A stretch of DNA of 64,000 nucleotides from Octopus vulgaris. Lineage: Eukaryota. The notes under the pieces were generated by a model. It was not told where the DNA came from. It saw only the letters and a program-made list of their open reading frames with translations, and searched no databases. Below are positions 40,668 to 52,663 of this stretch, piece by piece (the stretch's first letter is position 1; every line of letters begins with the position of its first letter). Location: NCBI GenBank assembly GCA_951406725.2, contig OX597823.1, positions 55,490,001 through 55,554,000 of the forward strand, written 5' to 3'. Made by a program: the position numbers and the translations under genes.

Positions 40668-40702
40668 TGTGTTTGAAAAGATTAATGGAAAGCGCTCACA
40701 CA
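40668..40702 (+). ncRNA. Minimal hammerhead motif, U3-A8 core variant, in the Penelope pLTR
   Basis: tgtgt-TTGAAAA-gattaatg-GAAA-gcgc-TC-acaca: 5-bp stem I, palindromic AGCGCT stem III; stem II is weak. Confidence 0.55.
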
Positions 40703-41054
40703 CACTAGGGAAAAGTTTCTTCCAAAAAGGTTAGTGAGGCCCTGATATAAGACTTTATAACCGTGTGTGTGTGTGTGTTTGCGTGCGTGTGTGTGTACAT
40801 ATATTTATACAAACATACAAAGGCAAAATGCAAACATTTATATATTCATTAACATATTCACAAGTGCGCGCGCGCACACACACACACACATACACACACG
40901 CACATACACACTTATATTTATCTTTGAATATATGTGTATGCATGCATTTGTATGTGTGAATGAATATATTTATGCAAGCAGCCATGCATTTATTTATATT
41001 CTGCATATGATTATGCGTGTTTGTCCGTGCACGATTGTGTGTGTGTGTGTGTGT

Positions 41055-41094
<40 letters not shown>

Positions 41095-41353
41095 CTGTGT
41101 GTGAGTATGTGTGCGTGTGTTTGTGCTTTTAAGTACGTTTCTTTTGAGAATTGCTACTCCTGTACTCGTGAAGACACCAATCATGAAAGTGAGTATTGCA
41201 TTACTTATTCATTCCTCAGTTGTAACAATACATATATTGGACATACATACATACGCGCGCGTACATTCACATATGCATGAACACATACACACAGACACAG
41301 TGACATAAACATACATACCTGTGTGCGTGGTGCATGTGTGTGTAGATATATTA

Positions 41354-41359
<6 letters not shown>

Positions 41360-41430
<71 letters not shown>

Positions 41431-41492
41431 GAGAGAGTGAGACCGATAGATATAGATACATTGAAAAATAATAAGATTGCTAGATAGATAAT

Positions 41493-41525
<33 letters not shown>

Positions 41526-41560
41526 GGATAGATAGATAGATAGATAGATACATGCATACA

Positions 41561-41592
<32 letters not shown>

Positions 41593-41815
41593 GATACACA
41601 CACATATATATATACATATACATACGTACATATATATATGTATATTTGTATGTATATATGTATATATGTGTATGTATATATATATAATATATATAAATAT
41701 ATATATATATGTATGTATGTATGTATATATATATATATACATATATACATATATATATACATATATACATATATATATATATACATATATATATATATGT
41801 ACATATATATATATA

Positions 41816-41852
<37 letters not shown>

Positions 41853-41885
41853 GTACATATATATATATATTTACATATATATATA

Positions 41886-41948
<63 letters not shown>

Positions 41949-42345
41949 TGTATGAACGTATGTTCGTATGTATATAAGTATAACGAGAGAACGTCTAGAT
42001 ATAATATAATACGATAGCAATGTCTAGGAAAGAGTATAATTACGATTTTTCAGCCAACGGGTAACATATATATTAGAAAATCGAAACACTAGAGCAGAAA
42101 AAAAAAGTAAAAGAAGACCAGTTCTTAGAACTAGTCTTAGAGAGATCAGATCAAGTATGAAGATAAATACGTAAAAGGAAAAACAATAACATGATATGTG
42201 AAGATCTAAAAAGCGTATATTATATCGCGTTCTCCTTGATTATACTCTAGTATAAGTCTTGTGTGTTATTTGCCTATCTAATTGATACATATGTGTGTGT
42301 GTGCGTGTCTCTGTGTGTGTGTGTGTCTGTGTGTGTATGCACTTG

Positions 42346-42383
<38 letters not shown>

Positions 42384-42745
42384 GCATGTATGTGTTTGTA
42401 CACGCACATAAATACATGCACTCACATATATACACACGCACACACAAGCATACACTATATGTATATATATATATATATACACTTAGAAGGAGAGAGAAAG
42501 AGAAAGAAAGATGGATAAATAGATATATGCATATATATATTCATCAACATGTATATGAATGTACGTATATCCATATCTATCTATCTATCTATAGGTATGC
42601 GTGTATGCACGCACACACACATATATATATATATACATATATACCTAAATATATATATATATACATACATACACACATACATACATATATTCATACATAT
42701 ATATATATGTATACACACACACACATACACATATATATATATATA
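41360..42745. repeat. Microsatellite field: (TA)n, (GA)n, (GATA)n, (CATA)n
   Basis: Seen directly. Confidence 0.95.
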
Positions 42746-42799
42746 AGTATAACATTGAAATTTAAAACAAATTTGACTAACTTTGACAAAGTGAAAATA

Positions 42800-48933: not shown

Positions 48934-49025
<92 letters not shown>

Positions 49026-49036
49026 CAGAAAGACAC

Positions 49037-49083
<47 letters not shown>

Positions 49084-49456
49084 GGAGGAAAGGGAAAAAG
49101 TAGTAGTAGTAGTAGTAGTAGTAGTAGGAGGAGGAGGAGGAAGTGGAGTATCGAAGTCAGAAAAACGTGGCCTTGTCATGATTTGAACCCAAGGCACGAA
49201 GAACCACGGGGAACAACGCAGTGCAACCTAAAGGAATTTCATTGCTGTAAAACCATCACCACCACCAGCACGATCGCGATCACGACTACTACCATCGTTG
49301 TCGTCGTCGTCATCATCATCATCATCATCATCATCATCAAGATCGGTTTCGTGGTTGTCGTCATCGTCATCATCATCATCATCATCTACGAAAAGGATTC
49401 GTGTACAGCATATCTTACAAAATAATGTAAAAAGTTCTAACAGACTCCAGACAGAG

Positions 49457-49515
<59 letters not shown>

Positions 49516-49580
49516 AGGAAGGAAAGATAGAAAGAAAGAAAGAAAGAAAGAAGGAAAGAAAGATAGAAAGAAAGAAAGAA
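48835..49580. repeat. (GATA)n, (TAG)n, (CAT)n and (GAAA)n microsatellites
   Basis: Seen directly. Confidence 0.95.
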
Positions 49581-49981
49581 ACAGGGAGGGAGAGAGAGAG
49601 ACCTAAAAGAGTGGGGCTAGAAGAGAATAACTAGAGAAAATTAATCACATTTTGTTTCTTTCTTTCTTTACAGTAAATCTATGATGATTTTATTCATTAT
49701 CTTTTTTTTTTTTTATACAGTTTCCAATCTGTTTTATCGATCGATTAGTTCGGTTTTCTTTTTGATTTCGGCACTTAGGAATTAAAAGAACGGAAATGGC
49801 GAACAAGACTGGTTCTTGAAAAAAAAAAGAACTTTAAAACATTTTCTTCTAATAACTAGTTACGTGTATATGTCTATGCTTCTGTATGTACGTGTGTATG
49901 TATATGTACACACACACACACACTCATATATACGCACACGCACACACAAATATATATAAATATATGTATATATATATATGC

Positions 49982-50032
<51 letters not shown>

Positions 50033-50379
50033 CATACACACACAGATATATGTATGTGTGGTTGCATGTATGTATACGTACGAATGTATGTGTGTATAAG
50101 TCAGACAAACAGAAAGAGGAAAGGCAGAAACTGAAATGGAGAGAGATAGAGGGGGAAAGAGATGGAGAGAGAGAAAAGAGAGAGAGAGTGGGGGGGGCAG
50201 ATTGGTCAAAAATCAGAACATTCTTCTTGAAATATTTTGCATTCTGATTTCAGGTTACGCCGATTTGTGTTTTCCTACTTTTATGCGACATTGTGGTTTT
50301 GTCGTTTAATCAGGAGGGCGAGACAGTGCACATGACCTGTTTCGAGTTCTCCGACGTTCAAATATACAGAGGACCTTCT

Positions 50380-50750
50380 CTTCCAGTGAATCATCGTCCA
50401 TCGACTACTTTCCTCCACCGTTTCCGACTTTGGGCCGTCGTTTTTCGCTTCTACTGAGCTAGATAACCTGCTTTTCCCATTTCTGCCTCAATATCTAGCT
50501 TCTAGTGATTTCTAGAGCATCCTCTCTTCTGTCTACTTTGCGAGTTCTAGGCCAGTGCCAGACTTGTAATGCTGGATGTTACTCCCCCTTAAGTTGCGGA
50601 CTGTCTATCCCTACTTTCAGGATCTATTTTTCCATCTGAGTCTGCCTACTTTCTTTCATAACTCTTCTTATCCGACCATCTAGTTTGAAGAATACACCTC
50701 AGTTACTGGTGAAGATCTGTATCATCTGGTGACCCTCTTTAAGAGACTGG
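50380..50750 (-). mobile_element. Old RTE LINE C-terminal remnant
   Basis: Minus translation ITSLALA*NSQSRQKRGCSRNH*KLDIEAE (compare ALxWNPQGKRKRGRPRNTW). Confidence 0.6.
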
Positions 50751-51278
50751 CTCGAATTCTGGGAACAAAGTGTACTGTACTGAAAACACCCAAATAGATG
50801 AATGGATGATAATGTTATAACAGGCGACGGATAAAGTCTGCCAGCCAGTTTCTTTGAGTGATTTGAACAAAGAACGCAATCAGCCGGAACAAATACTGTA
50901 TAACATTCAGTTTAATGCTCAAACAATTTCCCCAGTCCAGTACCCTAAAACTGGTACTTTATTTATCGACCCTGGGATGAAGTAAAATAAAGTTGGACTC
51001 GATAGGATTAGATCTCAGAATGCAAGAACCCGGATTAAATACCGAGAGGTATTTCGTCCAAGGCTCTAACGCTTATGTCAATTCGCCATTTATTGTTGCT
51101 TTTGATCAGCCGCAAGTCAAGTAGGACTATTTAATGAGGAAAAAAAAAGAAAAGGAGGAAAAACAGAACCTATATAATCAAATGCTCTTCAGTCGTGACC
51201 ATCCATCCATGATATATAATGCTATAGTATCATATATATATATATATATATAGCATGTGTTCCATGTCTGTTTTAAGA

Positions 51279-51348
<70 letters not shown>

Positions 51349-51424
51349 TGAGATTTAACTGTTTAGCATTCGGATTATTCTGTCAATTGTTATACTTATT
51401 TATTCACATTGCTTTTGAATTAAT

Positions 51425-51590
51425 GTGACAAAGCTGGCCTTTTGTAACACAGGTATTATTCATTTTTGCCAGCTGAGTGAACTGGAACAACGTGAAATGA
51501 AGTGTCTTGCCTCAGGGATACATGCGCTCCCAGGGAATCGAACTCACAACCTTACGATCGTGAGTCGAATACCCAACTGCTAAGCCACGA
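51425..51590 (-). mobile_element. SINE family C head
   Basis: ctgagtgaactggaacaacgtgaaatgaagtgtcttgc...gaatcgaactcac...ctaagccacg. Confidence 0.8.
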
Positions 51591-52486
51591 ACTTTATAAA
51601 AAGCATTCATGAGTACTGATTCATCAAACCATATAATAACAGCTTCCATATCAGTAACATACTCTGTGGTTTTATTTTGTTAGCTTCGGTATATTTTGGA
51701 ACTAATTAACCTCTCTGTTAAAGAATTATTTGTGGAAATCACAGTTGGTCTTTCTAGCAGATTGAGCAGTAACGTATTAATATCCTCTTTAGGACCCTCT
51801 ATTTCCATAAGTTGACAAAATAAATACCAATAATACACTCGGATTCAATTAATCGATCTCCCGTCTTCCTTAAGATGGGCTCATCGAGTACATCGATAAA
51901 AGGGATCAATACTATTCTCCTCTACAGAATTTCTTTATTGCCAATTACGGTATTGAAAGAAATAAAATATTGAAATAGACAGGACAGAATAGATAACACT
52001 GATGAATATAATTGATAAAGGAAAGTAAGAGAATATTGAGTTTTAATATATAGAATTAGCCTCAGAGAGTTCACAACACATAGATTAAATAGCATACACT
52101 CAGATAAGACACCATACAAAACAGATTATATTTACAACATATACATACACGTACCTATACAACGTATGCATGACACAGCACAAGCCACAATATATGGACA
52201 ACCGACATTATGTACACATCACTCAAACCAATATAATTTCTCTATTGTACTGATACTGCTGAGGTTGCGGTATGGCCGAATAGTTAAGAAGTTTGTTCTT
52301 CAATCTCGATGAACAAATTCGATCCCATTGTCTGGCATCTTGTGCCATCTTTTACTTGGAGTCCCCAGCTACTAGGGCACGAACCAGAAACTGGCCACAC
52401 GGAAAACGAATTTTTAAATTTTGAGTCGTAATATATACATATATATGAATATATACATACGCATATGTACATACTTACATCTATAC

Positions 52487-52527
<41 letters not shown>

Positions 52528-52624
52528 AATGAGGTAATCAGATCGGATGGTTCATATTTATAGATATTTATTTATATATTACATTTTTTACATATATATC
52601 ATATCATTCCGATCATATCATTCG

Positions 52625-52663
52625 GATTAGCGCTTTCTCCCAATCGAGTGGGCTTTTCAAATC
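52625..52663 (-). ncRNA. Minimal hammerhead motif, U3-A8 core variant
   Basis: Minus strand: gat-TTGAAAA-gccca ctcgat tggga-GAAA-gcgc-TA-atc; stem II ccca/tggg, palindromic AGCGCT; the host segment starts in a (TA)n run. Confidence 0.55.

Follow-up and report, generated by a model that had tools for sequence, protein, structure and literature searches.

Why two hammerhead ribozyme motifs on opposite strands carry U3-A8 in their catalytic core in place of the canonical C3-G8 pair, and whether such motifs can still cut, is the question raised by a 64,000-nucleotide stretch of Octopus vulgaris DNA (contig OX597823.1, positions 55,490,001 to 55,554,000; hereafter the window). The answer that appears probable from the sequences is that both are minimal type I hammerheads in the 3' pseudo-LTRs (long terminal repeats) of two families of Penelope-like elements (PLEs), here termed A and B, that U3-A8 is inherited in each family, and that the motif is likely a weak ribozyme, cutting only as a dimer or together with the protein of the element.

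Two hammerhead motifs with a U3-A8 core

Motif A, a minimal type I hammerhead, lies at 40668..40702 on the plus strand, and motif B at 52625..52663 on the minus strand; both combine the U3-A8 core with the stem III palindrome AGCGCU. In motif A, stem I (TGTGT/ACACA, 5 bp) leads into a core running from U3 at 40673 to A9 at 40679, followed by G40680 at position 10.1, G40687 at position 11.1 and GAAA-GCGC-UC, with cleavage predicted 3' of C17 at 40697. Motif B consists of stem I GAT/ATC (3 bp, with 4 bp more possible past a bulged C), U3 at 52660, A8 at 52655, G52653 at 10.1, A52638 at 11.1 and GAAA-GCGC-UA; its stem II has 4 bp (CCCA/UGGG) behind the unpaired G10.1·A11.1, and cleavage is predicted 3' of A17 at 52628. 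Stem I is weak in both motifs, and the closing positions of stem II are mismatched in both (G·G in A, G·A in B), while all core letters other than U3-A8 are intact, in the two motifs and in the two families. The positions and letters reported in the initial annotation of this DNA are thereby confirmed.

The pattern TTGANAA-N4-40-GAAAGCGCTH matches twice in the window and once in total over 200 blockwise dinucleotide shuffles (mean 0.005), and is thus more frequent than in shuffled sequence. The canonical core and the two single-change versions of the pattern have no match in the window, and none of the hammerhead families among the Rfam covariance models matches 40600-40750 or 52590-52700 at E<=10, in agreement with the earlier expectation that searches for CUGANGA would miss both motifs. 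Over the whole window, the 150 Rfam matches listed of 472 include miRNA matches driven by microsatellites. A repeat search of the window is dominated by microsatellites and does not link motifs A and B.

The core state within each family

Homologs of motif A were gathered by DNA similarity, without a filter on the core. The query 40430-40770 yields 42 matches besides the window at 66-86% identity, with the best 40 of 300 candidates scored, and 28 of the 29 other loci fetched span the motif. U3-A8 is present in 25/28, C3-A8 in two, U3-U8 in one and C3-G8 in none. Positions 10.1-11.1 are G-C in 18/28 and G·T in 4/28; since the family mostly has G-C here, with C at 11.1, the G·G closure of the window copy is, judged from its homologs, a decay private to that copy.

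For family B, the query 52520-52830 gives 43 matches besides the window at 94-99% identity (best 40 of 2978 candidates scored). U3-A8 occurs in all 27 top-scoring copies, a number that remains after two overlapping loci of 29 are excluded, and positions 10.1-11.1 are G·A in 18 of them and C·A in nine. Since every copy is G·A or C·A, the stem II closing mismatch is, by the same comparison, the state of the whole family and not the decay of one copy. The initial annotation had proposed that U3-A8 is a family property rather than two copies decaying alike, which the homologs bear out: U3-A8 is not sporadic, and C3-G8 is found in 0/28 of family A and 0/27 of family B. Its suggestion that the mismatched closing pair may mark inactive copies fits copy A, whose mismatch is private, and fails for copy B, where it is family-wide.

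Both motifs belong, as had been proposed, to Penelope-like elements. A long family B copy (L128) carries the motif twice, at 884 and 6183, around broken reverse transcriptase (RT) and GIY-YIG frames in a partial-tandem layout; its RT domain is matched weakly (PF00078, E 2e-4, below the curated cut-off) and is followed by a GIY-YIG domain (PF01541, E 3e-6, above the cut-off). An endonuclease (EN) remnant lies upstream of motif A, and longer family A copies (L004, L007, L013 and L021) extend into RT remnants. The linker that joins RT to EN has the form CX4CX2C in both families, reading CGDGRCGTC in L062 and L128 and CEDPRCGTC in the family A loci L021 and L003.

Core states across the genome

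The genome (2.8 Gb, microsatellite-rich and AT-rich) was searched with X-TGAN-Y-A N6-20 GAAAGCGCTH, X and Y being positions 3 and 8, and with the reversed pattern as control. U3-A8 is found 2408 times, C3-G8 369, U3·G8 347 and C3·A8 84 times, with 22, 13, 10 and 7 control matches, respectively; these counts reflect subfamily bursts, cover the GCGC class only and count a few sites twice. Within the GAAAGCGCUH class, U3-A8 thus outnumbers C3-G8 ~6.5-fold, and the C3·A8 mismatch is the rarest of the four states (84 versus 347 for U·G). The U3·G8 matches comprise C-G copies that have decayed as well as repeated sequences of subfamilies related to B and to a further family, C; one U·G copy (L175) has an endonuclease 90% identical to that of family B.

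The lineage of B accounts for 1649 matches. Among the first 100 of these, inspected by eye, positions 10.2-11.2 are C-G in ~68, T-A in ~28 and mixed in four; this swap of one stem II pair between B subfamilies was probably a single event. G10.1-C11.1 is present in two of the same 100. Closure at 10.1-11.1 also varies elsewhere: the first 30 listed U3-A8 matches have 15 C·A and five G-C closures, and the first 30 listed C3-G8 matches (L098-L127) have T·T in 14, A-T in seven and G-C in none. With C·A frequent in the former set, T·T in the latter and G-C scarce in both, the loose 10.1-11.1 position is, on these listed matches, general in the GAAAGCGCUH class, canonical-core families included.

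Surveys based on CUGANGA would therefore miss most motifs of this class in the octopus (369 canonical versus 2408 + 347 variant). The families offer ready natural variants, with C-G, U·G and U-A at 3-8 and G-C, C·C, C·A, G·A, U·U and A-U at 10.1-11.1, and this series suits the question whether it is for cutting or for their shape that PLE hammerheads are retained.

Catalysis, shape or relic

If the motifs are weak ribozymes of the kind proposed above, tandem transcription would yield an RNA with two hammerheads, whose AGCGCU palindromes would pair to form stem III; U3-A8 would stand in for C3-G8 as the tertiary pair, and cleavage 3' of H17 would trim the tandem PLE transcript. The AGCGCU self-duplex has 6 bp and -8.3 kcal/mol, and it forms in both homodimer cofolds.

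Several points weigh against cleavage by such motifs. The minimum-energy folds, as monomer or homodimer, never give the full hammerhead, the stems being weak, and copy A has a stem II of insufficient length for hairpin closure. The dominant family B is devoid of G10.1-C11.1 (0/27), and only 253/2408 U3-A8 matches in the genome keep that pair. The conservation seen across families is partly imposed by the search patterns, and AT-biased mutation alone (C>T, G>A) could turn C3-G8 into U3-A8 without selection. For a lizard PLE, moreover, insertion in vitro did not need hammerhead cleavage, and RNA-seq ends at the site were looked for and not found (PMC11167929).

The main rival reading, which we regard as somewhat unlikely, is that the family B motif, perhaps also that of A, no longer cuts and survives in the pseudo-LTR as a signal that is structural or bound by protein, or as a slowly drifting relic, the element spreading without self-cleavage. 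A closure of G·A or C·A in 27/27 family B copies agrees with it, as does the set of 30 C3-G8 matches in which T·T is commonest (14/30) and G-C absent; a natural U10.1-U11.1 mismatch is nonetheless known (PMC3088659), and stem II keeps its pairing through a double change in the B subfamilies. At 3-8, the U·G wobble subfamilies have spread too, whereas the C3·A8 state is the rarest, as would be expected if pairing still matters. A C3-G8 family (F) nested in a mostly U3 clade would need a double reversal against the AT bias, or repeated convergence, and together with the rarity of C·A it favours, as far as sequence can tell, a maintained 3-8 pair. The in vitro dispensability of cleavage in the lizard element, and the success of Naiad PLEs, which thrive without canonical hammerheads (PMC8557442), speak for spread without cutting. 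A retained fold would fit a binding role as well and does not separate binding from catalysis.

A bolder form of the catalytic reading is tentative and rather more likely wrong than right: PLE hammerheads here would walk repeatedly between C3-G8, U3·G8 and U3-A8 while remaining catalytic, and the youngest and most abundant family would cleave without C3-G8 or a 10.1-11.1 pair, the RT-EN protein or a dimer partner substituting for the G10.1-C11.1 site. If this is true, dated subfamilies form a natural series of intermediates of compensatory evolution in a ribozyme active site.

One lineage or several

The initial annotation spoke of a single Penelope lineage with a non-canonical core. The hypothesis that all U3 families form one clade is its own, and earlier trees preceded the test of it. 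Cores were linked to upstream RT/EN remnants and placed on an unrooted tree of 26 rows and 290 columns (LG+G4). From 80 stretches of families B', B'', C, D and E, nine have an upstream EN match, so several families are represented by one to three rows. The B protein anchors these rows, which are decayed; six of them fill less than half of the columns, and five family A rows (L004, L007, L012, L021 and L026) take their U-A label from the family instead of an intact core. Excluded are L044, L131 and L086, whose EN is, by distance, identity or long branch, that of a different element; near-duplicate copies of B and C, L120 (the same element as L211), L112, L022 and L025; and L019 and L117, which have too few residues.

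Three well-supported groups are seen in the tree: A/D/E with U-A, G with C-G, and B/C/F. The last group includes family F, a C3-G8 family with three copies bearing RT and EN, as well as two rows with U·G. The RT/EN protein of B is 57-63% identical to that of F and 43-51% identical to that of A. Placing all 18 U3 rows in one clade lowers the log-likelihood by 34.9 and is rejected (approximately unbiased test, p-AU 0.001, 26 rows), and at least four changes of the 3-8 state are needed on the protein tree. Judged from this tree, four or more switches between U-A, U·G and C-G have likely occurred at the 3-8 pair. The changes probably passed through the U·G wobble, which spread as subfamilies; the flanks of U·G and U-A relatives are ~82-90% identical to B, with two sequences each, so that the order of the steps is not given.

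The claim of a single Penelope lineage is accordingly not supported: B groups with the C3-G8 family F, to which it is closer than to A, and the single U3 clade is rejected. A related history, in which U3-A8 was gained once in a lineage ancestral to both motifs, is hence unlikely. It draws on the presence of U3 in the A/D/E clade and in most rows of the B/C/F clade: if the tree were rooted on the branch leading to family G, both clades could have inherited U3 from their ancestor, with one return to C3-G8 in F, and an unrooted tree of decayed, query-anchored rows leaves room for such an early gain with reversal.

That the motifs are chance matches, or two canonical copies with identical decay, can be dismissed with near certainty even in an AT-rich genome whose copies decay most often by C>T and G>A, given 0.005 matches expected per window, 2408 matches versus 22 in the genome-wide control, and C3-G8 in 0/28 A and 0/27 B homologs. 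A non-LTR retrozyme, with non-coding tandem units that each carry a hammerhead, was likewise rejected, both window copies being solitary pieces of coding PLE families.

Comparison with known hammerheads

U3-A8 in PLE hammerheads is already known. Among the minimal hammerheads of metazoan PLEs, the U3-A8 variant of Schistosoma mansoni Cercyon was given its own descriptor in 2014, with ~1,300 matches, and PLE minimal hammerheads are described as inactive as monomers and as cleaving weakly as dimers only (PMC4209133). The octopus motifs share with Cercyon the type I architecture in PLE pseudo-LTRs, U3-A8, a palindromic stem III implying dimers, mostly solitary truncated copies and a short stem I. 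They depart from that account in three respects: U3-A8 outnumbers C3-G8 here, unlike in the descriptors of that paper (~1,300 U3-A8 versus ~2,000 C3-G8); U3·G8 subfamilies exist; and the dominant family lacks G10.1-C11.1, a pair that ranks as highly conserved in that paper. The passages of its supplement file 2 hold no octopus entry, file 1 lying outside the search.

Covariation of C3-G8 to U3-A8 is reported in several natural hammerheads active in vitro (PMC3088659, Perreault et al. 2011), where G10.1-C11.1 is named as the stem pair with the highest conservation. Besides U3-A8, very short stems II and a U10.1-U11.1 mismatch occur there. Matches with core changes or a 10.1-11.1 mispair were dropped from those alignments unless activity had been measured, and closures by C·A, G·A or C·C are unmentioned in the passages available from that paper. 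Neither octopus hammerheads (title or abstract) nor closures by C·A or G·A are the subject of any paper retrieved in a literature search, which did not cover Lunse et al. 2017 (RNA Biol 14:1499).

The Anolis PAc Poseidon hammerhead also lies in a pseudo-LTR, and its 3-8 pair has been probed by single and double mutants; it cleaves only with the protein of the element and, as noted above, is dispensable for insertion in vitro (PMC11167929). It differs from the octopus motifs in having C3-G8 and in overlapping the start of the open reading frame (ORF). The coding layout resembles that of EN+ PLEs of the Neptune/Nematis type (PMC8557442, Craig et al. 2021), with RT followed by a C-terminal GIY-YIG domain, a CX4CX2C linker and a hammerhead near the 3' end, and family B further shares with them partial tandems, an optional tail, inverted truncated copies and microsatellite targets. 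The CX2-5CxxC linker between RT and EN, a Neptune trait common to Nematis too, is present, the likeness being one of features. Measured against these reports, the additions made by the octopus sequences are modest: the dominance of U3-A8, repeated switching with U·G, and a youngest family that has lost its 10.1-11.1 pair.

Layout of the family A copy

The window copy of family A is the 5'-truncated 3' end of an old PLE at 39718..40762 on the plus strand, as delimited by the common extent of matching loci. It consists of an endonuclease remnant, a short 3' untranslated region and the hammerhead, and ends beside a (TG)n run. The GIY-YIG remnant with one stop, at 39724..39969 (+), is 50% identical to the family B endonuclease in a tblastn search whose query carries PF01541. 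An abundant interspersed repeat at 39978..40389 (-), an interval that matches many unrelated loci and presumably is a tRNA-derived short interspersed nuclear element (SINE) or similar, splits the remnant, which resumes at 40395..40496 (+) with the C-terminal end of the endonuclease; this piece has one internal stop, and its translation matches the end of the family endonucleases. The copy is old and decayed, and probably a dead passenger.

In the family A loci L002, L003 and L086, the 8-nt palindrome GATTAATC or a form of 7 nt makes up stem II; neither is long enough to fold into a stable hairpin, and two copies could pair with each other here as in stem III. The commonest stem II sequence of the family is itself a palindrome and may pair between copies.

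Layout of the family B copies

The window copy of family B is a 152-nt fragment of the 3' pseudo-LTR of a young PLE family, at 52520..52671 on the minus strand, without the optional tail and set in a TA-rich microsatellite. With no nearby partner or ORF, it is probably a dead passenger. Copies of the family have one common 3' end, ragged 5' ends, an optional tail of ~30-35 nt, (TA)n insertion sites and, in some cases, inverted pairs. Many short back-to-back inverted insertions are seen (L050/L058, L051 and pairs of genome-wide matches), with motifs 7-180 bases apart on opposite strands. At another locus (L041/L042, G000:C9:19738836-19741998), end pieces of the family stand 842 bases apart, between TA runs, and a third copy lies 5.5 kb off in the opposite orientation. 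The long copy L128 has, at 4941-6183, a 3' region of ~1.2 kb from the endonuclease stop to the hammerhead, with low-complexity tracts; in family A this region is <0.3 kb.

Four runs (organisms A-D) contain family B, with no alternative letter listed at positions 3, 8 and 11.1, a result that speaks to presence only. In four runs of guessed RNA type, read as contigs, the pseudo-LTR is covered, and all four have a contig reaching into the ORF start; the same contigs show no pile of starts or ends and no clear intron, which is evidence neither way.

Neighbouring repeats

Past the (TA)n run beside motif B, at ~52260-52420, lies decayed sequence that we take to resemble the head of a tRNA-derived SINE. 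Remnants of other PLEs adjoin hammerhead-bearing copies at L064:8402-9001, L089:1846-2662, L091:167-1168 and L044:2435-2746, and their positions suggest that PLE insertions cluster in the same microsatellites. A dispersed repeat of ~300 nt occurs in the window in both orientations at >90% identity (1993-2295, 3209-3511 and 26892-27193, together with repeat family D19), and is probably a SINE.

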